Below are positions 26,121-53,279 of a DNA stretch of 58,198 nt, piece after piece. The notes under the pieces were generated by a model. The model did no database searches, was not told the origin of the DNA, and saw only the letters and a program-made list of their open reading frames with translations. Position 1 is the first letter of the stretch, and each line of letters begins with the position of its first letter. Made by a program: the position numbers and the translations under genes. Source of the stretch: Cyanobacteriota bacterium (lineage in GTDB: Bacteria > Cyanobacteriota > Cyanobacteriia > SKYG9); the NCBI GenBank assembly GCA_025054735.1, contig JANWZG010000001.1, positions 1 through 58,198 on the forward strand, read 5' to 3'.

Positions 26121-27155
26121 ATGTCTGAGACTGTCACCATTGACGACTTTTTCCGAGCACCCGGAGTGATTCTGGATGTCCGCAGTCCGGCTGAATATGC
26201 TGATGGGCATATTCCTGGAGCCGTCAGTTTTCCCCTTTTCAGCGATGAAGAACGAGCGCTAGTGGGTACTTGCTACAAGCAGCAGGGGCGAGACTTGGCG
26301 ATCGAACTAGGCTTAGAACTGGTTGGCCCCAAGTTAGCTACCTTCGTCCGACAAGCTAAGCAACTGACAGCCGATCGCACCCTGCGAATTCACTGTTGGC
26401 GAGGGGGAATGCGCAGCAGCAGCATGGCTTGGTTACTGGAGACGGCTGGTTTTTCCACCACTGTGCTGACGGGCGGATATAAGGCATTTCGCCAATGGGT
26501 ACGCCAAACCCTGGCAATTCCCAAACCTATCCTGACCTTGGGCGGCATGACAGGTACAGGCAAAACTGCTGTGCTGACTGCATTAGCGGCACTGGGTGAA
26601 CAAGTATTGGATTTAGAAGCCTATGCCCATCATCGGGGCAGTAGCTATGGCAGCTTGGGATTGCCCCCACAACCAACCCAAGAGCAGTTTGAAAACCATG
26701 TTGCTCTGGCATGGGCTGCCTTGGATGCTCAGCGCCCAATTTGGATTGAGGCCGAAAGTCGTCGGATTGGACTGTGTCGTATACCCGATGAGTTATTTCA
26801 GCCCATGATGCGTGCGCCGGTAGTGCAAATTGTTCGATCGCGGTCTGAACGCATTGCCCTGTTGCTAGCAGAATATGGCTCTGCAGACCCTGAAGGCTTA
26901 GTCGCTGCAACTGAACGTCTGCGCAAGCGGTTGGGTGGTCTGCGCACTCAACAAGCTGTGGAGTTTATTCGCACAGGACAGCTAGCCGCTGCGATCGACC
27001 TAGTGCTGGATTATTACGACAAAACCTACACCTATGACTTGCAAAAACGTCAAGTCCCGATTTACACAATCAACGCTACTGGGTTGGATGCTCAACAAAC
27101 TGCTCAACTGCTAACCGAGAAAGCCGCCTTTGGTCATTTTCAAAGGGAGAATTGA
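26121..27155 (+). CDS. selU: tRNA 2-selenouridine synthase
   Basis: 344 aa. It has a rhodanese domain with active-site CWRGGMRS followed by a P-loop (GGMTGTGKT), which is the SelU/MnmH (YbbB) architecture. Confidence 0.9.
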   Translation: MSETVTIDDFFRAPGVILDVRSPAEYADGHIPGAVSFPLFSDEERALVGTCYKQQGRDLAIELGLELVGPKLATFVRQAKQLTADRTLRIHCWRGGMRSSSMAWLLETAGFSTTVLTGGYKAFRQWVRQTLAIPKPILTLGGMTGTGKTAVLTALAALGEQVLDLEAYAHHRGSSYGSLGLPPQPTQEQFENHVALAWAALDAQRPIWIEAESRRIGLCRIPDELFQPMMRAPVVQIVRSRSERIALLLAEYGSADPEGLVAATERLRKRLGGLRTQQAVEFIRTGQLAAAIDLVLDYYDKTYTYDLQKRQVPIYTINATGLDAQQTAQLLTEKAAFGHFQREN

Positions 27156-29541: not shown

Positions 29542-30297
29542 ATGAGTCGGGTAATTGCCCTGTTTAACCAAGCGGGAGGCGTAGGTAAATCTAGTGTGAC
29601 GATGAACCTAGGCTATAGCCTCGCTCAGCACGATCGGCGTGTGTTATTGGTAGACCTTGACCCCCAAGCTTCCTTAACTCTATTCATGGGGCTAGAACCC
29701 TCAGAATTGCAACAAACCATCTACGAGTCCTTGCTGGAAGACAAAGAACTGGCTATTCACAGCAATCTGCACGGCATGGATCTTGTACCAGCCAACATTC
29801 GCTTGAGTGGGGCTGAACTGGAACTGGTTACTGCTGACATGCGCGACCTACGTCTGAAGGAAGCCTTGAGGCCAGCCCAAAAACACTATGACTTCATCTT
29901 GGTGGATTGTCCTCCTAGTCTGGGAATTCTAAGCTACATTAGCTTGGTAGCAGCCCACTATGTGTTGGTGCCTATCCAAACGCAATACAAGGCGTTTTGT
30001 GGTACGGAAATGTTACTGAGCACAGTGGCGCGGGTACGATCGCGGGCTAACCGCACTCTCAAAATAGCTGGTTTTATCCCTACAATGTACACTGCTCGTA
30101 ACTCTCAGGATGTGCGGGCCTTGGAGGCCATTCAACAGCAGATGGCTGAGTTTGGGACGGTGTTTGCACCGATCGTCCGTGCTACTGCCTTTGCTGATGC
30201 TGCCGAAGCCCACCAACCCTTAGCCATCTACAGTCCTCGCCATCCATCCCTAGAAATCTTCGATGACATTGCTACCTACTTAGAAAGCCTATCTTAG
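29542..30297 (+). CDS. parA: ParA/Soj-family partition ATPase
   Basis: 251 aa with a deviant Walker A (FNQAGGVGKSSVT), LLVDLDPQ and ILVDCPPSLG. Confidence 0.9.
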   Translation: MSRVIALFNQAGGVGKSSVTMNLGYSLAQHDRRVLLVDLDPQASLTLFMGLEPSELQQTIYESLLEDKELAIHSNLHGMDLVPANIRLSGAELELVTADMRDLRLKEALRPAQKHYDFILVDCPPSLGILSYISLVAAHYVLVPIQTQYKAFCGTEMLLSTVARVRSRANRTLKIAGFIPTMYTARNSQDVRALEAIQQQMAEFGTVFAPIVRATAFADAAEAHQPLAIYSPRHPSLEIFDDIATYLESLS

Positions 30298-30564
30298 CTG
30301 GTAGACACTACGTTAACCCCCAAGGGAACTGCCCATGAAAACGTTAGCAACCATCCCCTTGTGCCTGATCCAACAGTTTCCTACACCTTCCGCAGCTACT
30401 TTGAACTGCGGTTTGCTCCGTCTGAATATCTTGGCAAATTTGGCTTTTACCTTTAAGCGCGACCACCTCAAGTTGCCTCAGTCCGGTCTGCGGACGATCG
30501 CTGACCTTCAGCAACGTACCGCCACGTGTCTTTCCTATACCGAGTCCCCAATGACCTCAGAACC

Positions 30565-31494
30565 ATGACCCGCAAACGCGACCAACCATTTCGTCAAATC
30601 AAGGCCCAGGGCCTAGATGCACTGTTTGGAGATGCACCACCACCAGCAGGTGAATACATTTCCCTAGACCAGATTGTTTTACCAGCGCAACAACCCCGTC
30701 GCTATTTCGACCCTCACAAGATGGCGCAACTGGTGCAGTCGGTGAAAACTCACGGCATCTTGGAGCCATTGATTGTGCGTCCTTTACCCGATGGTCGTTA
30801 TGAGTTAGTAGCCGGAGAGCGGCGCTATCGGGCTGCCCGTGAGGTGGGGTTAACGGAGGTGCCGATCGTCAAGCGTGACCTCACTGACCAAGAGGCACAG
30901 CAATTTGCCCTTGTGGAAAATCTTCAGCGGGAAGACCTAAACCCCGTCGAAGAAACAGAGGGAATTTTGCACCTGTTGGCCATTAACCTGAACTGTGAGA
31001 TTGCTGACGTGTCATCCCTGCTCTATCGCATGAACAATGCTGCCTTAGGAAACATTAAGGAAGAATCTAATCATAACGTTATGATTAGCGACGAGGCGAC
31101 GATCGTCCAGGATGTGTTTCAAGGCTTAGGGCTAATGAGCTGGGAATCATTTGTACGCAATCGCCTCCCCCTGCTGAAGTTACCTGAAGACGTACTAGAG
31201 GCATTGCGCCAAGGCCAGCTTGCCTATACTAAAGCCAAGGAAATTGCCCGCATTAAGGACTCTACATTACGGCAAGAACTGCTACAAACCGCGATCGCGG
31301 AGGATTTATCTCTCGCTGATATCCGCACTCGCATTGCTGAACGGATGACCAAGCTAGAAACTACTCCACCATCATCCCTAAAGCAACGGTTCAAGACTAT
31401 CGTTCGGCAAGTCAGTAAATCTAACCTTTGGGATGACCCCAAAAAAAGCAAGCAACTGGAAAAACTGTTGTCGCAATTAGAGGCAATGCTGTAA
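30565..31494 (+). CDS. parB: ParB/Spo0J-family partition protein
   Basis: The start is placed at ATG 30565 (MTRKRDQPF...GLDALFG); the track ORF starts at GTG 30526. It has ParB box motifs (GILEPLIVRP, YELVAGERRYRAAREVGL, VENLQREDLNP). Confidence 0.9.
   Translation: MTRKRDQPFRQIKAQGLDALFGDAPPPAGEYISLDQIVLPAQQPRRYFDPHKMAQLVQSVKTHGILEPLIVRPLPDGRYELVAGERRYRAAREVGLTEVPIVKRDLTDQEAQQFALVENLQREDLNPVEETEGILHLLAINLNCEIADVSSLLYRMNNAALGNIKEESNHNVMISDEATIVQDVFQGLGLMSWESFVRNRLPLLKLPEDVLEALRQGQLAYTKAKEIARIKDSTLRQELLQTAIAEDLSLADIRTRIAERMTKLETTPPSSLKQRFKTIVRQVSKSNLWDDPKKSKQLEKLLSQLEAML
31067..31088. promoter_or_regulatory. Second candidate parS: perfect 22-bp palindrome CTAATCATAACGTTATGATTAG inside parB
   Basis: Read directly. 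It encodes ...SNHNVMIS... in ParB. Confidence 0.55.
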
Positions 31495-40721: not shown

Positions 40722-41690
40722 TCAAACATGCCTGCCATAACCATAAATACTCTCAAATAACTTCAACTGAATATCGGGAAAATGATAAACATTATTAGAG
40801 TCATCTCTAATATATTCAAGAATACATTTGGCTACGTACTCGGCAAGCTTTACGGGAACCGCATTGCCAATCATTTGCTCTAAGTCTGTCTTATTCCCCT
40901 CAAATTTGAAGGTTTTAGGAAATGTTTGGATATAGCTCCGCTCAATAGTAGTTAAAGGTCGTAAGTCTTCAGTAATATCACATGGGTCTCCCTTATGCTT
41001 CTTATATGTTTTTGGAATTGGTCGATTAACTCCGCGAACTGTTGGACTAGGTTCATAAATACTAAAAACAGCTCTCCTCTTATAGCTTCTAGGATGACGA
41101 TAGAAATACTCAATTCCCAAACTGTGACCTAAGTAATCAAAGACCGTCATAGGTTTTTTTGACTGATTTTTTCTTAAGTAATAATTCAAAGCATCGTCTA
41201 TTCCATGAAGTTGACCAATTAGAAAATATCGCTTTCTAACTTGAGGAACACCACACAAACTCGCATCAAGCATTACAGAAGTTAAGCCATATTCACTTTC
41301 TTTGAATATCTGTAGTGCTGATCTCAAAACTTGACTTTTGGCAATCCTCTCAACGTTCTCCATAACAAACCATTGAGGCTTAATGTAAGCAATGATATCC
41401 GCAAAACTCAAGGTCAAGTCTGCCCTGCCAAGACTTTCATCTCTTTTCCCTGCGCTCGAAAAATCCTGGCATGGAGGTCCCCCAATGATTATTTCTGGTT
41501 TTAATTGAGCGATAGTTTCACACGCATCGCTTTTTGAAAGATCCATATTAAAAATAGGATGCCGAAAGTTATTCTTGTACACTTCAATCGCCGGCAGCCA
41601 AGAATCAAACGCTGCGACTATGTCAAATCCAGCATTTTGGAAACCAAGTGACAAACCTCCACAACCACAAAATAGATCAACTGTCCTCAT
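40722..41690 (-). CDS. DNA (cytosine-5)-methyltransferase
   Basis: 322 aa with motif I (DLFCGCGG), motif IV (GGPPCQDFS), motif VI (ENV), motif VIII (QVRKRYF) and motif X (GNAVP). Confidence 0.92.
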   Translation of the reverse strand: MRTVDLFCGCGGLSLGFQNAGFDIVAAFDSWLPAIEVYKNNFRHPIFNMDLSKSDACETIAQLKPEIIIGGPPCQDFSSAGKRDESLGRADLTLSFADIIAYIKPQWFVMENVERIAKSQVLRSALQIFKESEYGLTSVMLDASLCGVPQVRKRYFLIGQLHGIDDALNYYLRKNQSKKPMTVFDYLGHSLGIEYFYRHPRSYKRRAVFSIYEPSPTVRGVNRPIPKTYKKHKGDPCDITEDLRPLTTIERSYIQTFPKTFKFEGNKTDLEQMIGNAVPVKLAEYVAKCILEYIRDDSNNVYHFPDIQLKLFESIYGYGRHV

Positions 41691-41715
41691 TGCTAAGACA
41701 TGAATTTAGATTTCT

Positions 41716-42810
41716 CTAATTAAATAAATCAGGAGAATTATAAATTATAGCGTCAAATCTCCTTTCAGGACTTAACAAGTTTTGACCTCCGCCTAAAATA
41801 ATTTCTTTAATTTCATCCTTTTGAATCCTTGGCATTCTTAAAACTTCTGATCTCATATAAAGATTTGTAAATCTCCCATTAACTGAAAAAGCTTTATCAT
41901 TTTTCGTATTATATGCAATATCAATAATTCTTCCCTGATCAAATTGAGACTGCAGGCTAAAATCATAAATCATCTTAAAGAGCCAAACAATGGCACGAAT
42001 ATGTCTACCAATAGTTATCGTTTGAGTTAAATTTCTATCTAATCTGCTCGAATCTAAAATTAGTTTTATAAAAGCAAGATTGCTCCAAATAAATACATCT
42101 AAACAGTTATCCGCAAGCTTAGGAGATTTTCCCATAGTTTTCCATATAGGCTGCATTATAGAAGGCTTTTGTGCTTCTATCATTGCCAATATGATTGCTC
42201 TGATGGAGGCAAACATATTAGAGAGATGGGGTATTACTTCTAGAGGTTCTGTCCAATCATTTATTTCCTCAAAATTTCCTGTAATCAAACTTTGAAGCAA
42301 ATTAATATTCTGTTCAAAATATTCAGCAATACTACAAGCTAGATAGACAATAGTATCAGGTCTTACAACTATTTCACATCCATAAAGATTCTCGTCTAAA
42401 AAGTCACATGTTGAGTTATCTGGTAACGCTGTTAACTTTATTTCAACCGCTTGTAAGCAAGCCCCGGTGTCTCTTCGCTGAGTCACCAGATCTGCTCTTG
42501 GAAGAGCACCAATCAAGTATTTTTGATATGGTGTAAATTGAGTTTCAAAAGCGTAAAAAATATTCTCTGAGTTTGGGTCAATTCTGTAAAAGGATTTTGT
42601 ACTGATACTTGAATGTTCAATTTCTAAATTTGAGTTGAGAATGATATATATGCTGTCGAGATTTTTACTGTATAAGTAAGAACAAAGAGAAGCTGGAAAC
42701 GATGTGTTAAAACAATTTTTGCCCCAGGCTTCCTTTTGAGTAAAGTCTCGATTGCAATACCTTAACGCAAATAATCCAGGTTGCTGTTTTGGGCTATTTC
42801 TTGAAATCAC
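41716..42810 (-). CDS. Probable type II restriction endonuclease partner of the C5-MTase; family not assignable by eye
   Basis: 364-aa intact ORF, 25 nt upstream of the MTase on the same strand, sharing the same extreme AT-richness. An EIKLTALPDNST segment resembles catalytic E-x-K regions of several type II REase families. Confidence 0.55.
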   Translation of the reverse strand: MISRNSPKQQPGLFALRYCNRDFTQKEAWGKNCFNTSFPASLCSYLYSKNLDSIYIILNSNLEIEHSSISTKSFYRIDPNSENIFYAFETQFTPYQKYLIGALPRADLVTQRRDTGACLQAVEIKLTALPDNSTCDFLDENLYGCEIVVRPDTIVYLACSIAEYFEQNINLLQSLITGNFEEINDWTEPLEVIPHLSNMFASIRAIILAMIEAQKPSIMQPIWKTMGKSPKLADNCLDVFIWSNLAFIKLILDSSRLDRNLTQTITIGRHIRAIVWLFKMIYDFSLQSQFDQGRIIDIAYNTKNDKAFSVNGRFTNLYMRSEVLRMPRIQKDEIKEIILGGGQNLLSPERRFDAIIYNSPDLFN

Positions 42811-43151
42811 AAGCTACAACTACAAAAACAATTCAGTTGGTCAGTTTACTCTAAATCAATCATTTAGAGTAAATGGCTCTTCTGGGTTCGTGATCGAACT
42901 GTATATTAGGATGCATTTGATGGTACTGAAAGTGCTGAAGCCTTGTTAGGCAAAGTATAAATCTGGCTTATTACCGGATACTCAGAAGATCTGGTTAGAT
43001 CAGGACGATTGTACCATAAATTGTCTTACAATATCCTAGCTCTCTCGATGATTCTCAACCCGTCCATTACAGCCAAATTACTGAAACGTAGGACTAGGAC
43101 ATAATGCTTTGTCTTCTTCCTACCAGCTAAATGAAGTGACCTAACTACGTG

Positions 43152-43319
43152 TCAAGCACCAAGTTGACCGCAGAGGTAATGTTCCATGGGATAGGCATAA
43201 ACCGTTTTCTCGGCACCACCATGCACTGTCAAATCTGCCTGTTGATCACCGTCTAGATTGAGCGATCGCATCATCATTCGTCCCTTAAAGTACCTGTTGC
43301 GACTACCTTTCCCTTCCCT
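43152..43319 (-). pseudogene. Internal fragment of a MOSC-domain (YiiM-like) gene
   Basis: The minus strand reads ...REGKGSRNRYFKGRMMMRSLNLDGDQQADLTVHGGAEKTVYAYPMEHY..., bounded by stops at 43320-43322 and 43152-43154. It matches the YiiM motif LNLDGD.QADL..HGG..KAVYAYP but spans fewer than 60 codons. Confidence 0.5.
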
Positions 43320-43509
43320 TCACGCAGCAAGCCAACACAAACTGAAATCAACCTCATAGCAGCTCCAATTACACGGCTCAGTAAAGGATGAATTTAGATG
43401 ATGCCAGTGCGCTAGTGGATGGACGCAGTTCTCTTAATGTACGGGGAGGAACTTCCACAATCAATCTCTATAGCCCAATGGGGCGTATTTTTCCTAAGGA
43501 GAGATCGGA

Positions 43510-45850: not shown

Positions 45851-46498
45851 CTATTGGCTAAGACACTGCCTGACAAAAGCTCGGAATGTTTTCTCAGCTT
45901 CGATTTCATCCTGTTGAGCTTGGTTCAAAAAATCATAGAGGTATACCTTTTCTACCCAAGGGAAGGTAGGACTACGATCGCACACCTGATACATCCCATC
46001 TTGGAGAGCATAGATTTGCCAGTCTTGTCCATCGTAGCGCCACAACTCAGGAACTCCTATGGCAGCATAGAGGCGATTTTTGTCAATATTAGTGTGGGTG
46101 ATGTCCACTTCCACAACTAGGTCTGGAGGGGGGTCTTGTGTTAAGTCTATTGAGCGCCCTGCTACTTGAGGCTGGTGTCGGATGTAGTAAGCATTGTCTG
46201 GTTCTGCACCACGGTCTAAGTCTGGTCGGTTTAGCGTTGTGGAACGTAGGGACTTCAGTTTTAACCCCATTTCTCCCACTAATATGCGGATAAACAACCC
46301 AATTAGCTCGCTAGCATACTCATGGTGTTCTAAGGGCATAACAATTTCTAAGGTTCCCCGATCGTAGGTCAGACGGGCAGCGCGACTTTCGGGTAGAACT
46401 TGGAGAATCTGCTGATAGGCTTGCCACGTTAACCCATACAATGTCACACGCTGTTCACCGAAGTGTTCCTGAGGCACGGGTGGTGCAATGGCAATCAT
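45851..46498 (-). CDS. Uma2-family (DUF820) putative endonuclease
   Basis: 215 aa with LTYDRGTLEIVMPLEHHE...PDLVVEV..., typical of Uma2. Confidence 0.8.
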   Translation of the reverse strand: MIAIAPPVPQEHFGEQRVTLYGLTWQAYQQILQVLPESRAARLTYDRGTLEIVMPLEHHEYASELIGLFIRILVGEMGLKLKSLRSTTLNRPDLDRGAEPDNAYYIRHQPQVAGRSIDLTQDPPPDLVVEVDITHTNIDKNRLYAAIGVPELWRYDGQDWQIYALQDGMYQVCDRSPTFPWVEKVYLYDFLNQAQQDEIEAEKTFRAFVRQCLSQ

Positions 46499-46543: not shown

Positions 46544-47272
46544 CTAGTTGCTGCTGAGTTGATGGGTGATCTGCTGGAGAGCATTGATATCTGCACTGCA
46601 AATAGTGGTGAGGTTTTCGGTGATGGTGGTAATATCCCAATCCCACCAGCAGATGCTGAGGAGGGCGTTGATGGTGCTGTCGTCAAAGCGCTTGCGGATG
46701 GGTGTGGCTGGGTTGCCGCCGACGATCGTATAGGGTTCCACATTGCGGGTGACAACAGACTTGCTGGCGACGATCGCCCCGTCACCGATCTGGATTCCTG
46801 GCATGATGGTGGCATTGTAGCCAATCCAAACATCGTTGCCGATGACGGTATCTCCTTTGTGGGGCCAGCTTTCTGGCATTGCCTTCTCCCATCCGTTGCC
46901 AAACACAGGGAACGGATAGGTAGTGAACCAATCAGTGCGGTGGTTGCCGCCGTTCATGATGAAGGTAGTTTTTGCTGCGATCGAGCAAAACTTACCGATG
47001 ATCAGCCGATCGCCCTCGAAGTCGAAATGGTAGAGAACGTTGCGCTCAAAGCCTTCGGGGTCTTCGGGGTCGTCATAGTAGGTGTAGTCACCGACGATGA
47101 TCATGGGGTGGGTCACCACATTTTTCAGGTAAACCAAGCGCGTTTGTCCCCCTAGGGGGTATTTCGTATCAGGGGAAGGTCCAAACACAGGTGATCGTTT
47201 AATTGAGCTACTGGTAGAACCGTAGCATAGCACTCTTATTTCCAGACTGCACCTAGTATTGGTCGGGGTCAA
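46544..47272 (-). CDS. Vat/CatB-type xenobiotic (streptogramin A / chloramphenicol-class) O-acetyltransferase, hexapeptide-repeat
   Basis: YHFDFEGDRLIIGKFCSIAAKTTFIMNGGNHRTDWFTTYPFPVFGNGWE...GDTVIGNDVWIGYNATIMPGIQIGDGAIVASKSVV...GGNPA..IRKRFD...WWDW closely tracks Vat proteins. The true start may be GTG 47188 rather than ATG 47272. Confidence 0.85.
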   Translation of the reverse strand: MTPTNTRCSLEIRVLCYGSTSSSIKRSPVFGPSPDTKYPLGGQTRLVYLKNVVTHPMIIVGDYTYYDDPEDPEGFERNVLYHFDFEGDRLIIGKFCSIAAKTTFIMNGGNHRTDWFTTYPFPVFGNGWEKAMPESWPHKGDTVIGNDVWIGYNATIMPGIQIGDGAIVASKSVVTRNVEPYTIVGGNPATPIRKRFDDSTINALLSICWWDWDITTITENLTTICSADINALQQITHQLSSN

Positions 47273-48155
47273 TGCCTTGCGCTCGGAGGAGGTCGGCTAG
47301 GCGCTGCGATCGTAGTCGTTCTTGCTCTGCCTGGTATTCGGCTTGTTCTGCTCGCAGCCGTTCCTGTTCTGCTTGGTGTTCGGCTTGTTCTGCCCGCAGT
47401 CGCTCCTGTTCTGCCTGGTGCTCGGCTTGCTCTGCTCGGAGCCGCTCTTGGACAGTTAAGGTTTCTAGCTCGTCCGATCGCAGCAGACGCTCACCGGTCT
47501 GTCCATCTTGAATGACTAACCGACCATCTTGCAAACTAATCCACAGGTCTAGGGTTTGGCAGTAGATACGTCCGTCGTCATCCGGGCTGATGGGTTGATA
47601 GGTTCCTAATGGTGTCAGACGGTAGCCTAGTACCTCGTCGATCATCTGTTCTCGATAGGGACGACGGTCAACGATCACATATTCCTGAACTCTAGCAGTG
47701 GCGTAGTGTAGGACTTTGATTTCGCGATCGGCTTTGCGATAGCGGGGCGAAACCACCTCTAGCACAAAGGCAGGACGTACTCCTTCGTTTGACACAATAA
47801 ACTTGGTGCGGTTTTGCTCCTTGTTGCGGATGCCAAAAGCAACGCAAACATCGGGGGAGTGAACCTTCAGATCGGGGATATCCCACTCGATGAGTAGATC
47901 GTGAAATACACCAACATCGGAGCGATCGGCATAGCGACGGGCAGTGATATCTTTTGCGTCTAGGCTAGCTTGGTCATGGAAAGTGCTGTTGGGCAAACGG
48001 TAGTCCTCCTGGGGATGCAAAAATTCCTCCTCTGTCAGGGGCACCATTACCTCCGTCGTGGTGCCGTCAGCCAGCACAATCGTCTCATAGCGCCAGCCGC
48101 ACTCTGCCAATTCAGTAGACAAGTCAGTGGGAATAGTTGTCGTCACTATAGTCAT
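47253..48155 (-). CDS. Uma2-family putative endonuclease with a C-terminal coiled-coil repeat extension
   Basis: The start is placed at ATG 48155, preceded by AGGAGA; the track ORF extends to 48203. It has a Uma2 core (PDVCVAFG..., FVLEVVSP) followed by ERLRAEQAE(H/Y)QAEQ x3. Confidence 0.75.
   Translation of the reverse strand: MTIVTTTIPTDLSTELAECGWRYETIVLADGTTTEVMVPLTEEEFLHPQEDYRLPNSTFHDQASLDAKDITARRYADRSDVGVFHDLLIEWDIPDLKVHSPDVCVAFGIRNKEQNRTKFIVSNEGVRPAFVLEVVSPRYRKADREIKVLHYATARVQEYVIVDRRPYREQMIDEVLGYRLTPLGTYQPISPDDDGRIYCQTLDLWISLQDGRLVIQDGQTGERLLRSDELETLTVQERLRAEQAEHQAEQERLRAEQAEHQAEQERLRAEQAEYQAEQERLRSQRLADLLRAQGIDPDQY
47317..47442. repeat. Three in-frame 42-bp tandem repeats
   Basis: Units are 47317-47358, 47359-47400 and 47401-47442, aligned by hand. 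They encode the 14-aa ERLRAEQAEHQAEQ repeats. Confidence 0.85.
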
Positions 48156-48174
48156 GAAGCGTCTCCTGCAATGG

Positions 48175-48516
48175 CTATTTGTTAAATACCGACGATACAA
48201 CAATGGTCACTGTCGCGGCGGCAATCAGGCTAAAGGCTAGCTGTACGACCCACTGGGTAGCTTTCTGGTAGGTCTCAAATTTGTCGTTAAACATACTGAC
48301 TTCTTGCTTGTAGCCTAGGACTTCTTGCTTGTAGTTCAGGACTTCCTGTTTGTATTCAGCTACTTCATGCCGATAGCTTTCTACATCCTGCCGGAGCTGC
48401 TGGACTTCGGCCAAGACCGATCGCATCTGTTGGACTTCGGCCAAAACCAACTGCATCATCTGCCGGAGATCGTCTAGTAACTCAGTAGATGGCTGTGATG
48501 ATTCAGCGGATGACAT
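48175..48516 (-). CDS. Hypothetical coiled-coil protein with a C-terminal TM anchor
   Basis: 113 aa with heptad repeats (YKQEVL x3) and a hydrophobic tail (VVQLAFSLIAAATVTIVVSSV). Confidence 0.4.
   Translation of the reverse strand: MSSAESSQPSTELLDDLRQMMQLVLAEVQQMRSVLAEVQQLRQDVESYRHEVAEYKQEVLNYKQEVLGYKQEVSMFNDKFETYQKATQWVVQLAFSLIAAATVTIVVSSVFNK
48298..48360. repeat. Three in-frame 21-bp tandem repeats
   Basis: GACTTCTTGCTTGTAGCCTAG, GACTTCTTGCTTGTAGTTCAG and GACTTCCTGTTTGTATTCAGC, read directly. Confidence 0.8.
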
Positions 48517-48553: not shown

Positions 48554-51500
48554 CTAATCAGGGCGTTGGAGGTCAGCGGGGGGCAGCCAAGTTGTGATTC
48601 GCCCCTCTGCTGTCAGACAAGCGATGCCATCACTGGTGATGCTATGGACAATGAGAGTGCCGGGATACTGACGCTGCAAGTTGGGATGGTTACCGATGTA
48701 AGCAACTCGATCGCCAACCGCAAGGGGACAAGGGACGATCGACGCAGCATCTACAGCCTTTAACGTTGGATCAATTTCATCAACACTTGTCTGAATATCC
48801 CCCCGCGACGGGCTATGGGAAGTTGATCTCTCCAGCAACGATTGATCAATACCATTTCCAGCATCATCTCGGTCATTAGTTTCATCGCCCTGGACAGATC
48901 CAGAGCCAGGAGGACTGCCACTCAAGGTGGATGATTCTTTCACATCGTCTGGGAAAAGGGGTACAGGGACTTGGCTGATCACCTCTCTTGCTGGGGGGGA
49001 TAGAGGATATGCTTCTGCGTCTAGCTGGGGTCTAGTATCGGCGGCAGCAGTTGATGGCTGATCGGGCAATTGTGGATCAGGATCAATGCCAATATCTGGC
49101 TCTGGGAAAGGGTCGATCGTCCCTGAATTGATCAATTGTTGATGGTCAGCATCCCTCTGATTCTCGATGAGAGAAAAGGAGTTGAGGGGGGTAGACAGGC
49201 TGGCAGTTTCCTGTAGAGTAGGCACACTCTGACCAGAGGGTATATACACCGACTCAGCACCCACGCCCTCGATCGTCCCGTGACCCGCAGCAACCAGGGT
49301 TTGCATCAACTGGCGAATTTGCTCCACGGGCATCCGCCGCAGGGCATAAACACCGCTCTTAGCTTGGGAAGCTGTGACCCTGCCCAGTTTTTCGGCATAG
49401 CGTTGCAGTTTCAGGCTAGGGCCTTCTAAACCAGCGTCGGGAGAGTTGTGGGTGTAAATCAGGCGGTATTGCCAGAGGTAGTAGGCAGCTAGTTCGATCG
49501 CCTTTTCCATGGTGTCGCCGGTGATCACTTGGGTGGGACGATCGCCGCGCAGGGTCGCATTCACCAAATGTAGCCATAGTGCCAGCCGACTGGTGTAAGA
49601 CTCTATTTTGGGATAGACTGCCCGCAGTCCCACTGCTGATTCCGTAATCTGAGCATCGACTAATTGATGTTGCCAGGTTTCTAGCAGTTGTTTTGCCTCG
49701 TAACTGAGCAGGTAGTCTTGGGGAGGAAGCTGCTCCAGGTCGCGGTAGAGGCGCATCAAGGCTTCAGAGATGCCTGTATCTTGGTCATCTTGCAACAAAC
49801 GGAGATAGCGCCGGGGGAGTTTGGGGGCACAGAGCAACCAACGGGCAAAGCTACCATTGAAATCAGTGTGGTCGCCCATGAGCTGGCTCAGGGTTTCCCA
49901 TTGGTAGGCTCCGGTGCGAGAGACCGCAGACTGGGCAAGGCAAACGGATTTTTCGGCACGATCGTACAAAATCGCTGCCCCATTCCACTGGTCTAGTTCG
50001 GCCTCTTCATCGGCACCCACACCACCTCTGTACATATTGCGAGATTTAACATTGCCCACCAATTCATCGCGATAGTAGAGGATGCCGCGTGGGTTTTCGC
50101 TGTGAATACGTTGCAGGGTTTCCAGGGTGACATCCTTAGTAACATAGCGCTTGCGAGTAGGGGGCTGGCGATAGTCTCCATCCTGGGACTTGTTGGCAGC
50201 CTGTTGCTCTGCTTTGTAGTCGGCAAGGTCTAGTTGGTAGCGATCGTGTGCCTCCTTTTCCAAGGCAATTAGAGGATCGATAATCACCCGCTGCACTGGC
50301 GTTTTCAAGGAGCCAGAATCTGCTACCACCGCTGTCCAAAACACCATTGGTTGAGTATATTTGGCACTAGGCTTGACTACGACCCGTGCTCCGGTACCAA
50401 TGCGCGAAGCAGCAGCAGGCAACAACGTCGTGAATAGCATTTCTGGAGCCGTTGGCATGGCCCTAGCTGTATCAATCAATTGTTGAGCAAAGGCTGGCTC
50501 TAGGTAACGGTGTAGATTGAGTTGCGTGTGGCGGATGTTCAGCAGGTTGTGCAGTTTTTGAATGGCATCGGCTAGGTTGGTTTGCAGGTCAACTTCAATC
50601 ATCAAGGCCTGTGCTAGGTGAGAAATATCACGGTAGTAATAGCCTGCCGTTTGTGCCAACTCCATCAGGGCAAACTCTCTCTGTCCTGGGGAATCGTGCT
50701 GCCGCAGAATCGTGAGGATCTGATCCCGGAGAGAGGGAGAAGCTGACGGAGGATGGAGAACAGGGGATGGAGGGACAGCAAGGGCGGCAGCAGTGAGGAA
50801 ATCTTGCCAGGTGTAGCCGACATCAAGGGCATTGGAAACATCCCAGCCAGCGATCGGGCAATCCTCTGGCATGGGCACTTGGGCAATGCGTCCCCGATCG
50901 CCCAGCACCAGCGCTAGTTTTTCTGCCCCAGCCTCTCCTGGAACTACACCATCTTTACGAGGTTCGTCATTACGATCAAAGAAAATCGTCACTGTACCCG
51001 GTAAGGGATCCAACTGGTCAAGGGGTGGTATGGTGCCGCAGCCTGCGGTAGAACAAGCAACAGCAATCGATGCCCCCTGCTGTTGTGCTTCCCAACCAAG
51101 ACGCATCCCATCCCATTCCCCTTCACAGAACCAAGTCTCTGTAGCATTCTCTGGGTGATAGGTCAGCCACACCGTTGCCGGAACCCCGTACTGGCTCCAG
51201 CGGCTCAGACCATCGGGACGATCGTCCCCCGTTAGCCATGGTGCAATGCGTAACTTGCGGTAAAACTGTCCCGGCTGGTTGGGTACAGGAATGTGCAGGG
51301 CGATCGCCCACACATAGCGTAACTGCGGGTGATCCTTGAGGGGATAGCGCTCCAACCCAAGCTGGAAATGGCGGATCATGTCACGGGTAAAGCCGCGACC
51401 CTCTAGCCAGCAAAGAGCCTGCTGTTGATCTGGTTGACTCGCACTGAGCAGACGATCAACTGACTGCTGCACCTGCCGTCGGCTAAAGACCTGTGGCGAA

Positions 51501-51820
51501 CGCAGCCCGACCTTTGTGACCTTCGTGTCTTTGTGGTGTTCTTGTTTGCAGTGTTCTTGAACAGAGAACCCAGCACTCGCAGCAAACGGTAGCGGTGCAT
51601 TCAACGCCGCCCGGATCTGCTCTGGCGTGCAGCCGCGATAGCACCAATACTTGCCGTTGTCATTGACCTGAAGGTTTTTCTGCTTGAGCTTGCCGTCCTG
51701 TTCGCAGCTAGGACAACTCGCCCGCCCATTGTGAACTTCGATGTAATTACGAATGTCAAATTTACACCCGTTGCGGGTGTGCGCTACAATCTTACTAAGC
51801 ATGATAAATATCCAGCTCAT
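48554..51820 (-). CDS. Large primase-helicase-like replication protein (zinc finger + Toprim-like + DUF3987-like), plasmid or mobile-element type
   Basis: 1088 aa. It has a Cys-rich finger (CPSCEQDGK...WCYRGC) and acidic Toprim-like motifs (WFCEGEWDG, TIFFDRNDEP). A DUF3987-like centre follows (PRGILYYRDELVGN, GGVGADEEAELDQWNG). The protein ends in a P/S/D-rich low-complexity linker and a small C-terminal beta domain (VGDRVAYIG...LIVHSI). An alternative start is ATG 51802. Confidence 0.8.
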   Translation of the reverse strand: MSWIFIMLSKIVAHTRNGCKFDIRNYIEVHNGRASCPSCEQDGKLKQKNLQVNDNGKYWCYRGCTPEQIRAALNAPLPFAASAGFSVQEHCKQEHHKDTKVTKVGLRSPQVFSRRQVQQSVDRLLSASQPDQQQALCWLEGRGFTRDMIRHFQLGLERYPLKDHPQLRYVWAIALHIPVPNQPGQFYRKLRIAPWLTGDDRPDGLSRWSQYGVPATVWLTYHPENATETWFCEGEWDGMRLGWEAQQQGASIAVACSTAGCGTIPPLDQLDPLPGTVTIFFDRNDEPRKDGVVPGEAGAEKLALVLGDRGRIAQVPMPEDCPIAGWDVSNALDVGYTWQDFLTAAALAVPPSPVLHPPSASPSLRDQILTILRQHDSPGQREFALMELAQTAGYYYRDISHLAQALMIEVDLQTNLADAIQKLHNLLNIRHTQLNLHRYLEPAFAQQLIDTARAMPTAPEMLFTTLLPAAASRIGTGARVVVKPSAKYTQPMVFWTAVVADSGSLKTPVQRVIIDPLIALEKEAHDRYQLDLADYKAEQQAANKSQDGDYRQPPTRKRYVTKDVTLETLQRIHSENPRGILYYRDELVGNVKSRNMYRGGVGADEEAELDQWNGAAILYDRAEKSVCLAQSAVSRTGAYQWETLSQLMGDHTDFNGSFARWLLCAPKLPRRYLRLLQDDQDTGISEALMRLYRDLEQLPPQDYLLSYEAKQLLETWQHQLVDAQITESAVGLRAVYPKIESYTSRLALWLHLVNATLRGDRPTQVITGDTMEKAIELAAYYLWQYRLIYTHNSPDAGLEGPSLKLQRYAEKLGRVTASQAKSGVYALRRMPVEQIRQLMQTLVAAGHGTIEGVGAESVYIPSGQSVPTLQETASLSTPLNSFSLIENQRDADHQQLINSGTIDPFPEPDIGIDPDPQLPDQPSTAAADTRPQLDAEAYPLSPPAREVISQVPVPLFPDDVKESSTLSGSPPGSGSVQGDETNDRDDAGNGIDQSLLERSTSHSPSRGDIQTSVDEIDPTLKAVDAASIVPCPLAVGDRVAYIGNHPNLQRQYPGTLIVHSITSDGIACLTAEGRITTWLPPADLQRPD
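51762..51790 (+). promoter_or_regulatory. Candidate sigma70 promoter on the strand antisense to the rep gene
   Basis: TTACAC (51762-51767), 17 nt, then TACAAT (51785-51790), read directly inside the first codons of the rep ORF. Confidence 0.4.
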
Positions 51821-51869
51821 GGCTGGGCGAATGACGACCCACTAGCTCGCAACTAGTGGGTTTTGTTTT
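51797..51869 (+). ncRNA. Candidate ~70-nt antisense RNA covering the rep start codon(s) and 5' leader
   Basis: Bounded by the promoter above (predicted start near 51797) and the plus-strand terminator at 51838-51869. It is complementary to both possible rep start codons (51818-51820, 51800-51802). Confidence 0.35.
51838..51869 (+). terminator. Plus-strand intrinsic terminator with no plus-strand gene to terminate
   Basis: CCCACTAG (51838-51845) pairs with CTAGTGGG (51853-51860) around a 7-nt loop, then TTTTGTTTTGGGTTTTG follows. On the minus strand the hairpin is followed by non-U-rich sequence. Confidence 0.6.
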
Positions 51870-51932
51870 GGGTTTTGTGTTTGCAAATAACTGGAAAATG
51901 AGACCGGAATGCCGCCCTCACCCAGGTGCTAA

Positions 51933-52166
51933 CTAGCCCTCTGCACCTTCGACGCGACGGGTGCTGTCCAGATCTTGAACTCGCACTAGTTTGTAAGTAC
52001 CTCGTGCTAGTTGCTCCAAAAGTTCGCACTTTGTCCGCACATTTTCTTGAGCTGCTAGCTTGTCTAGGGCTAACAGAGCTGTAGGTGTGAGAGACAGGGT
52101 GGTGCGCGTTTTTGGCTCACCCCATGCCAGGGGACGACCCAACCGTTCGCGTTTTCTGGTTTGCAT
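51933..52166 (-). CDS. Small ribbon-helix-helix-like DNA-binding protein upstream of rep
   Basis: 77 aa with a basic N-terminus, then a beta-strand-like RTTLSLTP and two short helices (TALLALDKLAAQENV, RTKCELLEQLARG). Confidence 0.45.
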   Translation of the reverse strand: MQTRKRERLGRPLAWGEPKTRTTLSLTPTALLALDKLAAQENVRTKCELLEQLARGTYKLVRVQDLDSTRRVEGAEG

Positions 52167-52204
52167 TGGACGTAACAGCAGTTGAAAAATAGTGATCCTG
52201 ATCT

Positions 52205-52254
52205 TAATGCATAACTAATGCATAAGAAAGTATTTGGTATGCATTAATGCATAA
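52205..52254. promoter_or_regulatory. ATGCAT-core repeat cluster (candidate operator/iterons)
   Basis: TAATGCATAA occurs at 52205-52214, 52216-52225 (11-bp phasing) and 52245-52254. A perfect 16-bp palindrome TATGCATTAATGCATA lies at 52238-52253. All are 39-88 nt upstream of the RHH start. Confidence 0.55.
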
Positions 52255-52349
52255 CATTTTGTTACGCAGCACTGGTTTAAACACCGATCGCCCTGTTACA
52301 GATCGATCACTTTTGGGAAAAGCTTTCAGGGCTTGCGATAGATAACTAC

Positions 52350-52393
52350 TAATGACTCAAGTAATAATGACTTAATAATGACTCAAGTAATGA
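52350..52393. repeat. TAATGA(C) direct repeats at the island/rfbD junction
   Basis: TAATGACTCAAGTAAT occurs at 52350-52365 and 52376-52391. Partial copies are TAATGACTT at 52365-52373 and TAATGA at 52388-52393. The cluster ends 2 nt before the rfbD stop codon. Confidence 0.6.
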
Positions 52394-52394
52394 T

Positions 52395-53279
52395 TTAAGC
52401 TGCAAGCATTTGACGGAGCATTACTCGTAAGGCCGATCGCCAGTGGGGCGGAATCGTTCCTAGTGCTGCTGACACTTTCTTGCCGGACAGTACCGAATAA
52501 GCTGGGCGCTTGGCTGGGGTGGGATATTCGGCAGTGGTAATAGGAACGACCCGCTGCATGGCTAGGGACATGTCTAAGGCAGCCGCCTCTTCAAAGATGG
52601 CCACAGCGAAGTCATACCAGCTAATGGCTCCACTGTTGGTATAGTGATAGGTGCCAGGACTGATCGTCTCCTGCAAGAGACCTAGAAGTAACTGGGCGAT
52701 CGCGGTGGCCAAGTCCCCTGTCCATGTAGGTGTGCCTACCTGGTCAACCACCACCCGCAGTTCTTCCCGCTCTTTGCCCAGCCGCAGCATCGTTTTCACA
52801 AAGTTGCCTTTGCCGCCTACACCATAAACCCACGCCGTGCGCAGAATCAGATGGCGATCGCAGGCTTGGCGCACCCCATCTTCTCCCAGCAGTTTGGACT
52901 TGCCATAGGCACCAACGGGATTGGGGGTATCATCTTCCAAGTATGGGGTGTTCTTCTGGCCATCGAATACGTAGTCAGTAGAAATGTGGATGAGAGGAAT
53001 GTGCAACTCCTGTGCCACCTCTGCCATGACTGTGGGTGTAGTGCCATTGATCGTGTTAGCAAGGTCTGCCTCCGACTCTGCCTTGTCTACTGCTGTGTAG
53101 GCAGCGGCATTCACGATCGCCCTCGGTCGCCAGTCCCGAATCTTTGTCCGCACCTGCTCCGGTTGTGACAAGTCCAGTTCATCTCGACTGACTGGCATCA
53201 CCTCACCCACTGTGGCTAACACTGGTTGGAGGTCGTGGCCTAATTGTCCTGCTGCGCCTGTTAACAAAATTTGGGTCAT
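52395..53279 (-). CDS. rfbD: dTDP-4-dehydrorhamnose reductase
   Basis: 294 aa with [31 protein letters not shown] and YGKSKLLGE (YxxxK). Confidence 0.9.

Follow-up and report, generated by a model that had tools for sequence, protein, structure and literature searches.

Here we report that two minus-strand genes on a 58,198-nucleotide cyanobacterial contig (the whole stretch that was analysed, hereafter the 58-kb window) are best explained as a module that replicates a large cyanobacterial plasmid or chromid and controls its copy number. It would operate through a ribbon–helix–helix (RHH) repressor, an antisense RNA, a primase–helicase Rep and ParA/ParB. We put the probability of this reading at roughly 0.6; the contig itself is probably a fragment of this plasmid or chromid. 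Both genes lie where a preliminary description, made from the sequence alone, had placed them, and its broader proposal, a replication module of the plasmid type, stands: the closest homolog on a complete replicon is on a plasmid beside related ParA/ParB genes, and the predicted control elements are of the copy-control type.

48554–51820, minus strand: primase–helicase gene (ORF call, 1088 aa, or from 51802 as annotated by NCBI)
51933–52166, minus strand: CopG-like RHH repressor gene, 77 aa (family profile)

The start annotated by NCBI for the large ORF is six codons downstream of the ORF-call start. The encoded protein consists of a four-Cys zinc ribbon, a DnaG-type core, a DUF3987 domain, a winged helix, a disordered linker and an SH3-like β-barrel, in that order.

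51596–51763, minus strand: zinc-ribbon region, residues 20–75 (C36-x2-C39 ... C60-x3-C64; conserved cysteines, pLDDT 74–83)
50771–51493, minus strand: DnaG-type RNA-polymerase (primase) core with a Toprim fold, residues 110–350 (Foldseek and invariant motifs)
50453–50740, minus strand: helical linker, residues 361–456 (all-helical model, pLDDT 74–93)
49451–50452, minus strand: DUF3987 AAA+ helicase domain, MCM-like, residues 457–790 (Pfam PF13148, Foldseek and Walker motifs)
49232–49432, minus strand: winged-helix domain, residues 797–863, candidate origin/DNA-binding (predicted structure and Foldseek)
48761–49231, minus strand: disordered P/S/D-rich linker of ~155 residues, 864–1020 (pLDDT 22–28)
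48566–48724, minus strand: C-terminal SH3-like small β-barrel, residues 1033–1085 (separate model, pLDDT 85)

The Cys-rich finger, the Toprim-like acidic motifs and the DUF3987-like centre of the preliminary description are all borne out. C36, C39, C60 and C64 are each kept in at least 90% of 50 homologs. The AlphaFold model of residues 110–350 (pLDDT ~90) has DnaG catalytic cores as its best 16 PDB matches (Foldseek, E 2e-7 to 4e-5, probability 1.00), and the homolog alignment reveals invariant residues in this core: E233-G-E-W-D237, D282/D285 (DxxD) and G325-W-D327. No Toprim or DnaG model of Pfam or NCBIfam scores above threshold in the protein, and the primase region gives weak matches to DnaG_N/TIGR01391 and to phrog_239 primase/helicase. 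The DUF3987 region matches PF13148 (E 1.3e-42; 146.8 bits, cut-off 27) and phrog_2373 DNA helicase (E 6e-21), its K506 (Walker A) and D585-E586 (Walker B) are invariant, and its model resembles MCM subunits (Foldseek, probability 0.77–0.96). Among the domains for which the preliminary description had suggested a search, DUF3987 was matched, zf-CHC2 of Pfam gave no match, Toprim stayed below threshold and DUF3854 was absent. The D5_N, DUF5906 and DnaB models have no match in the protein, and such models do occur in relatives with the same N-terminal primase.

The winged helix, modelled with a helix–helix–helix–strand–strand order, resembles the wHTH proteins AspA/pNOB8 over 61–63 residues (Foldseek, probability 1.00), and a C-terminal wHTH is typical among DUF3987 proteins (PMC4889955). 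The P/S/D-rich linker noted earlier lies in a part of the model (residues 864–1056) with pLDDT below 50, evolves with dN/dS 0.45–0.51 and carries indels among relatives. The small C-terminal beta domain, also noted, was modelled in isolation from 14 sequences, and its closest folds are Tudor, KOW and SH3 (probability 0.98–1.0, TM 0.6–0.7, E ~0.1); it is the terminal domain in 14 of 120 homologs, including fusions of the DnaB/AAA_25 type. The protein model resembles phage DUF3987/Toprim primase–helicases in BFVD (best E 1e-28, 884 columns).

Most of the 126 homologs occur in filamentous cyanobacteria; the clade is restricted to cyanobacteria, mostly filamentous ones, and no member was found among IMG/VR viral contigs. 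Orthologs are intact in two related MAGs (1080–1089 aa), and in a third relative (L040) the gene is broken into two. Purifying selection on the gene is strong (dN/dS 0.10 overall, 0.07–0.09 in the primase core and 0.02 in DUF3987), and its dS is close to that of the flanking rfbD (0.57 versus 0.53), a substitution pattern indicating that the gene is functional.

The upstream protein is, by its family profile, a true RHH protein, as had been proposed. The 77-aa query alone falls below the Pfam cut-off (16.2 versus 20.5 bits), and 16 of the 17 family members match RHH_1 (best E 7.8e-10); the nearest solved relative of the family profile is CopG of pMV158 (best PDB match, E 1.2e-4). The protein is 97–99% identical to its counterparts in two related genomes (L001 and L036), its gene evolves with dN/dS 0.02–0.06, and in Kamptonema an RHH homolog precedes a related primase gene. 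The AT-rich repeat region that the preliminary description had recognized is upstream of the RHH gene.

52167–52290, no strand assigned: AT-rich non-coding block (conserved; GC 0.34–0.43)
52205–52254, minus strand: four TTATGCATTA sites, three direct and one inverted, candidate RHH operator

Across 52150–52399 the GC content is 33–43%, against ~52% in the flanks, and all but one of the window's five TTATGCATTA-like sites fall inside the cluster. In four genomes, 80–97% of the columns of the AT-rich block are invariant, a level equal to or above that of coding DNA, and the figure for the cluster is 93–97%. The cluster overlaps a candidate −10 element (TAAGAT, 52206–52201); a promoter scan of 4.5 kb returned no minus-strand promoter there. 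We infer that the block may act as promoter and operator, with the TTATGCATTA sites as the candidate binding sites of the RHH protein, and possibly as an origin as well.

Beyond the preliminary description, the analysis points to a new element, a predicted antisense RNA over the start codon of the primase–helicase gene.

51797–51880, plus strand: predicted antisense (counter-transcript) RNA, ~80 nt (promoter-like site and terminator at its ends)
51761–51790, plus strand: antisense promoter-like site, TTTACA – 18 nt – TACAAT, within codons 11–20 of the large ORF
51836–51862, plus strand: terminator of the antisense RNA, a hairpin with a 10-bp stem and a 7-nt loop, then TTTTGTTTTGGGTTTTGTGTTT (folding and conservation)

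The predicted RNA spans both candidate start codons (51820–51818 and 51802–51800) and the leader of the primase–helicase mRNA. Its hairpin folds at −14.5 kcal/mol (z −5.9) and the whole RNA at −25.6 kcal/mol (z −2.3). In four genomes 93–95% of its columns are invariant, against a coding background of 65–75%; the conserved island spans 51730–51869, and dS in the first 33 codons is 0.055, a ten-fold drop from the gene-wide 0.57–0.80. A precedent on a cyanobacterial replicon is asRNA1 of pSYSA (PMC9978351), and the CyRepX asRNAs begin ~25 nt downstream of start codons (PMC10899382). The pMIC7113.01 homolog described below has neither the RHH gene nor the hairpin.

The hairpin of the leader, together with the conserved start of the coding region, could instead constitute a DNA or sense-RNA element, a reading that we regard as possible and rather unlikely. 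It might serve as an origin or as a site for loading a primase/helicase, set the stability of the mRNA, be a target of RNase, or control translation. The inverted repeat is foldable on both strands, yet a T-run follows it on the plus strand alone; on the sense strand it is preceded by an A-run and lacks a trailing T-run. Conservation drops sharply just past the T-tail. Promoter-like and terminator-like matches are each no commoner than in shuffled sequence, and Rfam ctRNA families give no match above threshold for the predicted RNA (15.4 versus 45 bits); however, the promoter-like site is the top match of the 4.5-kb scan (10/12), lies on the same strand as the T-run, 46 nt upstream of the hairpin, and has both hexamers unchanged in four genomes. 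In L036, one stem pair has changed from A-U to G-C, a compensatory change, and one from U-A to U-G; these leave the stem fully paired on the antisense strand (−15.8), whereas the sense-strand hairpin gains a C·A mismatch (−13.3 versus −16.0), with which it still folds; this comparison involves one variant sequence among four. Origins often adjoin rep genes and none was located elsewhere here: an origin search identified neither iterons nor DnaA boxes, and the GC-skew minimum of the contig is ~5 kb from the rep gene and ~9 kb from the block upstream of the RHH gene, not at the module.

The plasmid reading of the contig draws on its partition genes, a candidate partner of the replicon.

29542–31494, plus strand: ParA, small ORF and ParB partition genes (Pfam; 17 kb from the module)

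The best plasmid match of ParB is on pMIC7113.01 (61%), its top matches are all on cyanobacterial plasmids of 75–300 kb, and none of its 120 closest relatives is on a contig larger than 264 kb. ParA is 71% identical to that of pMIC7113.01, and this circular plasmid, which has no CyRepA-type Rep, carries the only full-length plasmid homolog of the primase–helicase (59%). Apart from a weak methyltransferase-domain match, ParA, ParB and the primase–helicase (59–71% identity) are all that the window and pMIC7113.01 share. ParB and the module are 7–17 kb apart in the window, L001 and L040, despite shuffling of gene order, and DUF3987 proteins are the sole large ORFs of 7-kb cyanobacterial plasmids. 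Core housekeeping genes are absent from the window; its SelD, SelU, HU and thioredoxin-type genes are compatible with a chromosome too. As there is no closed replicon and the contig ends have no terminal overlap, the case for a plasmid is circumstantial.

A competing account, which we hold to be rather unlikely, is that the locus is what remains, as a relic or in domesticated form, of an integrative mobile element in the chromosome. The RHH/primase–helicase pair would formerly have driven episomal replication of an excised P4-, PICI- or integrative-plasmid-like island that lost its integrase, and would now be fixed in a chromosomal region of polysaccharide and accessory genes. Homologs indeed lie directly beside tyrosine integrases on a 6.28-Mb contig, one with an excisionase-like DUF1233 gene, and another adjoins a large serine recombinase and CI/Cro-like regulators on a 553-kb contig; because family members occur beside integrases in chromosomes, the protein type is not plasmid-specific. 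The window, however, contains no integrase, as had been remarked, and no transposase, excisionase, att-like repeat or tRNA. Its flanks (rfbCD, glycosyltransferases, SelD/SelU, HU) resemble ordinary cellular genes and the locus co-diverged with them, but decay would not give dN/dS 0.02–0.09 across all catalytic domains, and control elements near-invariant in four genomes are unlike those of a decaying relic. The linked ParA/ParB genes are plasmid-like, and the backbone shared with a real plasmid also argues against this account.

Far less probable is a toxin–antitoxin or anti-phage defence locus, with an RHH antitoxin or regulator and a large ATPase effector. RHH proteins are often antitoxins, and the family profile weakly matches some (E 0.04–0.12); neighbouring Uma2 proteins match the PADLOC candidates PDC-S03/S17, but PADLOC matches neither the large protein nor the RHH protein, and the large protein has a complete and conserved primase and helicase catalytic set. 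DUF3987 proteins are found with pAgo islands (PMC11724360), where the protein is itself interpreted as the replicative helicase of the element. The least probable is the family suggested earlier, a Rep of the CyRepA type like that of Synechocystis pSYSA, which offers a loose functional analogy (both large primase-plus-helicase proteins, with a small ORF upstream and antisense control; PMC9978351), but genuine CyRepA1 (Slr7037) has DUF3854 (E 3e-50) and SF1-type helicase models, neither of which is found in our protein. CyRepA1 and the protein here share nothing collinear by BLASTP and have an hhalign probability of 2.7%, and tblastn with CyRepA1 finds no match in the window. The assignment is wrong, refuted at the level of sequence and profile: real CyRepA1 has no similarity to the protein here.

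For the plasmid or chromid module, we propose the following mechanism. A promoter in the conserved AT-rich block would transcribe the RHH–rep operon, and a CopG-like RHH dimer bound to the TTATGCATTA repeats would repress it. A constitutive antisense RNA of ~80 nt, starting ~24 nt within the rep ORF and ending at the intrinsic terminator in the leader, would base-pair where translation of the rep mRNA begins, limiting Rep synthesis according to gene dosage, a logic like that of CopG plus RNAII in pMV158. Rep would combine initiator, helicase and primase in one protein: its winged helix may recognize the origin, the DUF3987 (MCM-like AAA+) ring would unwind DNA, and the zinc ribbon and DnaG-type core would supply the host polymerase with RNA primers. 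Tethered by the disordered linker, the SH3-like barrel may recruit a partner or nucleic acid, and ParA/ParB, 17 kb away, would segregate the replicon.

A comparison with known systems places the protein closest in layout to DnaG/Toprim–DUF3987 fusions of phages and mobile elements (PMC4889955), in which an N-terminal primase, a DUF3987 SF6/MCM-like helicase and a wHTH follow in the same order; as a group, DUF3987 proteins are helicases related to SF6/MCM, with frequent fusion to a DnaG or AEP primase (PMC4889955). Sequence identity to such fusions (for example BFVD A0A510E8K7, Serratia phage Eta R9VYI0 and uncultured Caudovirales 'Archaeal primase DnaG/twinkle TOPRIM' proteins) is only 11–17%, and the protein here has the additional disordered linker and SH3-like barrel and is accompanied by a CopG-like RHH protein and a putative antisense RNA. 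P4-type alpha proteins have a D5/SF3 helicase, a type not detected here. Zinc finger, Toprim-type primase and hexameric helicase in one polypeptide recall P4 alpha and T7 gp4/Twinkle, and P4 alpha ends in a winged helix that binds the origin; by analogy, our protein probably works like these. The helicase superfamilies differ (SF3 D5-like in P4, SF4 DnaB-like in T7, DUF3987/SF6-like here), the P4 likeness drawn earlier is an analogy only, and the integrase of P4-like elements is absent here.

AgaPH, a PriCT–DUF3987 protein of pAgo-carrying integrative elements, is an ATP/dATP-dependent 5′–3′ helicase (PMC11724360) and, as the sole biochemically characterized member, the source of the activity expected for the protein here. 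It shares with our protein a DUF3987 ATPase that bears Walker A/B motifs and, at the C terminus, a small domain, but it carries a PriCT domain and works with a separate AEP PrimPol where our protein has a fused DnaG-type primase. CyRepA1/CyRepA2 and CyRepX of Synechocystis plasmids are also large Reps with primase-related and/or helicase domains (PMC10079941, PMC9978351, PMC10899382), regulated by antisense RNAs close to the 5′ end, and their homologs are found on plasmids and chromosomes alike; no homology to our protein was detected, and the domains that define CyRepA (DUF3854 and a DEXDc-type, SF1-type helicase; PMC10079941) and those of CyRepX (DEXDc/HELICc-like) are unrelated to those here. 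The predicted control circuit resembles copG–repB of pMV158, in which a small RHH repressor gene directly precedes rep, a repeat operator lies at the operon promoter, and RNAII is a short counter-transcript with an intrinsic terminator, complementary to the rep translation-initiation region. Unlike RepB, a rolling-circle HUH nuclease of a 5.5-kb Gram-positive plasmid, the Rep here is a predicted primase–helicase, for which replication of the theta or strand-displacement type would be expected, and its replicon would be no smaller than 58 kb.

Two open reading frames on the − strand, together with the control region between and upstream of them, make up the module analysed here.

48554–51820, − strand: primase-helicase (Rep) gene, 1088 residues
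51761–51790, + strand: promoter-like site, TTTACA-18-TACAAT
51797–51880 (approximate), + strand: predicted antisense RNA
51836–51862, + strand: 10-bp hairpin, followed by a T-rich tail
51933–52166, − strand: RHH gene, 77 residues
52347–52394: three TAATGACTCAAG(T)AATAAT direct repeats, directly after the rfbD stop codon

The large gene, labelled 'DUF3987 domain-containing protein' by NCBI with a start six codons downstream, very likely encodes a DnaG-type primase joined to a DUF3987 helicase. A Pfam match, conserved residues and structure-model matches together give a predicted seven-part architecture, consisting of a zinc ribbon, a DnaG-type primase, a helical linker, a DUF3987 helicase, a winged helix, a disordered linker and an SH3-like barrel. 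The DUF3987 domain (PF13148) spans residues 457–790 (E = 1.3e-42, 146.8 bits against a Pfam cut-off of 27) and covers profile positions 2–363 of 364. Across 50 aligned homologs, the Walker A residue K506 and the Walker B residues D585–E586 are invariant, and G503 is present in at least 90 %. C36, C39, C60 and C64 are invariant or nearly so and form a C4 zinc site, as against CHC2. The Toprim acidic motifs (E233-G-E-W-D237, D282/D285 and G325-W-D327) are likewise invariant, the second being DxxD where the canonical motif is DxD.

An AlphaFold model built on this alignment has a pLDDT of ~90 for residues 110–350 and is confident for most of 360–860, with residues 864–1056 predicted to be disordered. 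The best 16 PDB matches in Foldseek are DnaG catalytic cores only, from four bacteria (E = 1.8e-7 to 4.4e-5, probability 1.00, target TM 0.45–0.49). Next in the ranking come MCM4, MCM3, MCM6 and MCM5 of CMG (E = 3e-3 to 4e-2, probability 0.77–0.96), a match to be read with residues 584–631, inside the DUF3987 domain, modelled at a pLDDT below 50. The winged helix (residues 797–863) gives a ~62-residue Foldseek match to the AspA/pNOB8 wHTH proteins (probability 1.00), and the best matches among viral models come from phage primase/helicases of DUF3987 and Toprim type, with 884 columns aligned in the top one (E = 1e-28). Modelled alone from 14 sequences, the C-terminal 68 residues form a small SH3/Tudor/KOW-like barrel (pLDDT 85); its HMM matches the extreme C terminus in 14 of 120 homologs, including proteins with DnaB/AAA_25-type helicases, indicating that the barrel is an independent module. 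Single-sequence PDB searches with the large protein and with the RHH protein were uninformative. The anatomy proposed in the preliminary description (zinc finger, Toprim-type primase, DUF3987 centre, linker and C-terminal beta domain) is thus borne out by Pfam, conserved residues and fold matches. At the level of domain models, DUF3987 was recovered as it had anticipated, but the Toprim, zf-CHC2 and DUF3854 models, like those for DnaB/D5, give no threshold match. DNAG_N (E = 0.14) and TIGR01391 (NCBIfam, 10 bits against 283.6) match below threshold, and the PHROGs family phrog_239, 'DNA primase/helicase', weakly matches residues 30–368 (E = 1e-6).

Proteins of this type are already known from the DUF3987 literature. 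Kazlauskas et al. placed DUF3987 among the SF6 (MCM-related) replicative helicases, as a divergent member that often has an AEP or DnaG primase fused to it or beside it and a wHTH behind it (PMC4889955). It is predicted to stand in for MCM, RepA or DnaB in the primase fusions of mobile elements (PMC5862659), and a PriCT-DUF3987 protein was shown biochemically to be an ATP/dATP-dependent 5′–3′ helicase (PMC11724360). The family of the present protein comprises 126 matches at E ≤ 1e-3 in a protein search, often with several copies per genome; its members reside in integrative elements and on plasmids, which range in size from 7 kb to several hundred kb. Its zinc-ribbon/DnaG N-terminal module recurs, at 42–55 % identity, in other cyanobacterial proteins (P0098–P0120; loci L022, L024 and L027) whose helicase ends are D5_N/DUF5906, DnaB/AAA_25 or zf-CHC2-containing architectures. 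The C-terminal barrel is retained in several of them: the N- and C-terminal ends are conserved, and the helicase between them has been exchanged.

The 77-residue protein is very probably a CopG-like RHH protein. By itself it scores below the Pfam cut-off for RHH_1 (16.2 against 20.5 bits); a HMMER search through the full set of 1.8 billion representatives yielded 21 relatives, with the family consensus GRPxxWGExKxRxxxxLTPTAxxxLDxLAxxxxLSRSELxEQxARG. RHH_1 is matched by 16 of 17 family members (best E = 7.8e-10), and the best PDB match of the family profile is CopG of pMV158 (E = 1.2e-4), which upholds the earlier description of a small RHH-like upstream gene. In Kamptonema, a co-oriented family member precedes, by ~500 nt, a related primase gene whose product is joined to another helicase. 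The AT-rich repeat region described upstream of the RHH gene was also found: the DNA there has 33–43 % GC, and of the five TTATGCATTA-like sites in the window, four cluster there, conserved, in a stretch of 50 bp. These four sites are a candidate RHH operator, and the promoter is likewise a candidate. The TAATGACTCAAG repeats probably do not belong to the module, as they are missing from the related MAG locus L001 and their stretch is almost wholly unconserved among relatives.

A further element, beyond those described earlier, is a probable antisense RNA. The best + strand promoter-like site of the region is followed, 46 nt on, by the hairpin and T-rich tail, and the predicted ~80-nt RNA (−25.6 kcal/mol, z −2.3) would be antisense to the leader of the large gene as well as to its two possible start codons. 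Taken one by one, promoter and terminator consensus matches are not commoner than in shuffled sequence; the case for the RNA rests on conservation. Across the window and three related MAG loci with an orthologous module (L001, L036 and L040; Rep proteins 75–100 % identical), positions 51730–51869 are 93–95 % invariant, compared with a coding background of 65–75 %, and conservation drops to 20 % just past the T-tail. Moreover, dS is 0.055 in the first 33 codons of the primase-helicase gene, compared with 0.57–0.80 gene-wide. In L036, the one informative sequence for covariation, the stem substitutions (A-U to G-C and U-A to U-G) keep full pairing on the + strand (−15.8 kcal/mol), whereas the sense strand gains a C.A mismatch (−13.3 versus −16.0). 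Metagenome scans found no further relatives of the leader or hairpin, and Rfam returned only ctRNA_pGA1, at chance level (15.4 bits against a gathering threshold of 45, E = 4.2). Antisense terminators proposed by one scan in the related loci L024, L027 and L028 were not reproduced by another terminator scan and were discarded; the L024 hairpin is bidirectional and would serve better as a sense terminator. By prediction, the unit has the make-up of a ctRNA, that is, a short antisense unit with a promoter and an intrinsic terminator over the rep initiation region. On balance, we favour an ~80-nt counter-transcript that would overlap the translation-initiation region of rep.

The 58-kb window, a contig of a cyanobacterial MAG, contains no tRNA, transposase or integrase, the last in agreement with the preliminary description; it carries polysaccharide genes, SelD/SelU, a restriction–modification pair and ParA-ORF-ParB (29.5–31.5 kb). 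DUF3987 proteins occur on 51 plasmids, nearly all cyanobacterial, but a full-length homolog on one only, pMIC7113.01, which is circular, 146 kb long and devoid of a CyRepA-type gene. Comparison of all window ORFs with this plasmid returned ParA (71 %), ParB (61 %), Rep (59 %) and a weak methyltransferase domain, and nothing else; the window thus combines a partition system with backbone homology to a known plasmid. pMIC7113.01 also provides the best plasmid match of ParB, the other top matches being cyanobacterial plasmids of 75–300 kb, and none of the contigs of the 120 closest ParB relatives exceeds 264 kb, whereas Rep homologs do occur on a 6.28-Mb contig. On 7-kb plasmids of Oscillatoria and Microcystis, the DUF3987 protein is the sole large ORF. 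Gene order is shuffled between the window, L001 and L040, yet ParB lies 7–17 kb from the module throughout. Purifying selection on the primase-helicase gene is strong (dN/dS 0.10; 0.02 in DUF3987), and its divergence matches that of the flanking rfbD. The contig's relatives are all MAG fragments, none longer than 58 kb. Against a plasmid, the contig is not closed and has no terminal overlap, and homologs in chromosomes have a tyrosine or serine recombinase as neighbour, an arrangement typical of integrative elements. Weighing both sides, we put the probability that the contig is a plasmid at roughly 0.55–0.6.

Two of these related replicons have features of their own. pMIC7113.01 (NC_019739.1) is conjugative and encodes its own pol III gamma/tau, delta, delta′, beta clamp and SSB, as well as a PolA-like polymerase, thymidylate synthase and a nucleotide kinase beside the primase-helicase, a replication set that is unusually complete for a plasmid and phage-like. 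The 6.28-Mb contig carries two paralogous elements ~200 kb apart (L033 and L034) with a common layout of DUF5895 and small ORFs, primase-helicase, small ORF and Arm-DNA-bind_2 integrase; the small ORF before the integrase is excisionase-like (DUF1233) in L033. With a third paralog on the same chromosome, these represent an integrative-element family multiplying inside one genome.

Several neighbouring genes of the window are also distinctive.

238–2535 and 26121–27155: selenium-utilisation genes (a SelD fusion and SelU)
40722–42810: low-GC island with a HindVP-type restriction enzyme and a C5 DNA methyltransferase
45851–46498 and 47253–48203: Uma2-family (putative endonuclease) genes, either side of a hexapeptide acetyltransferase gene
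47311–47450: three 42-nt tandem repeats ending the larger Uma2 gene, coding for ERLRAEQAEHQAEQ
48175–48516: ssr2422-family thylakoid-membrane protein gene

SelD is fused to a pyridine-nucleotide oxidoreductase domain, and the selenium genes are kept in L001 and L040. The restriction island (~35 % GC versus ~50 %) is missing from the syntenic region of L001 and is therefore probably a recent insertion. In PADLOC, the Uma2 genes match two families of candidate defence systems, PDC-S17 (E = 2e-39) and PDC-S03. The ssr2422-family protein (NCBIfam, E = 5e-23) has a coiled coil and a TM segment, and its gene contains internal 21- and 30-nt repeats; it starts 37 nt past the primase-helicase stop codon, a position kept in L001 and L036, and may therefore be co-transcribed with the module. 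In L040 (8830–12163), a stop within the linker that follows the DnaG domain divides the primase-helicase into ORFs of 370 and 720 residues; a natural separation of primase and helicase, a pseudogene and a misassembly are all conceivable explanations.

Searches for iterons, DnaA boxes and GC-skew signals did not locate an origin for the module. No iterons beyond the candidate operator repeats occur in 47–53 kb. The cumulative GC skew of the window is strongly organised, with extremes near 19.9 and 43.4 kb and a range exceeded in 0 of 2000 block shuffles. Its minimum (~43.4 kb) lies ~5 kb from the rep gene in a gene-free stretch (42811–43509), where gene orientation is unchanged and neither iterons nor DnaA boxes were found. 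The pattern could reflect a replication polarity switch or mosaic ancestry.

Among other assignments of the large protein, the P4-like kinship suggested earlier survives as a functional comparison only, because no D5/SF3 module was detected. Membership of the P4-alpha/D5 group was rejected, as neither D5_N nor DUF5906 matches the protein and the window has no integrase. The CyRepA family, named earlier for this domain combination and defined by DUF3854 plus DEXDc (PMC10079941), was ruled out by direct comparison with Slr7037, the CyRepA1 of Synechocystis pSYSA. DUF3854 is matched by Slr7037 as a positive control (E = 3.4e-50), and the primase-helicase has no match at E ≤ 1 with the whole protein or at E ≤ 10 with residues 1–442. 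AAA_30, Herpes_ori_bp and ResIII, marking the SF1-type helicase, match Slr7037 alone. BLASTP gave no collinear alignment of the two proteins, hhalign of the family profile with Slr7037 gave a probability of 2.7 %, and tblastn of CyRepA1 against the window gave no match. A DnaB-type helicase was rejected for want of any model match; D5 and DnaB-type modules were found only in relatives with the shared N-terminal primase. A defence or toxin–antitoxin system and a viral origin fall away, with no PADLOC match for either gene and no relatives in IMG/VR.

The best reading is a plasmid or chromid replication and copy-control module partnered with ParAB, in which a ZnF-DnaG-DUF3987-wH-IDR-SH3 replicase would be restrained by a CopG-type repressor and by a counter-transcript starting inside the rep ORF. 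The module is uncharacterised, is made of known kinds of parts and is not CyRepA. To our knowledge, the characterised cyanobacterial plasmid replication proteins are few (CyRepA1/A2, CyRepX1/2 and the pANS/pUH24 Rep), and the primase-helicase family is unrelated to them. Tentatively, and at somewhat less than even odds, the module may represent an uncharacterised replicon class of large cyanobacterial plasmids or chromids, distinct from CyRepA, CyRepX and pANS-type Reps, with an 'all-in-one' replicase under pMV158-like dual control and a 3.8-kb cassette that would be self-sufficient and portable in filamentous cyanobacteria. Vector choice limits genetic work, above all in filamentous strains. 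Should the RHH/antisense RNA/primase-helicase cassette replicate autonomously, it would add a compatible replicon to those in use, with a copy-control circuit that is built in and open to dissection. It would also provide a tractable case of the DnaG-DUF3987 replicases, fusions that, as far as we know, have so far been inferred mainly through phage genomics. If the cassette does not replicate by itself, the strong conservation of the control region would still want explaining.

The RHH gene and the predicted antisense RNA have the same arrangement as CopG and RNAII of pMV158. A cyanobacterial precedent with a like arrangement is asRNA1 of pSYSA (PMC9978351). The CyRepX genes, whose antisense RNAs start ~25 nt inside the gene (PMC10899382), show an arrangement like that predicted here for the primase-helicase.
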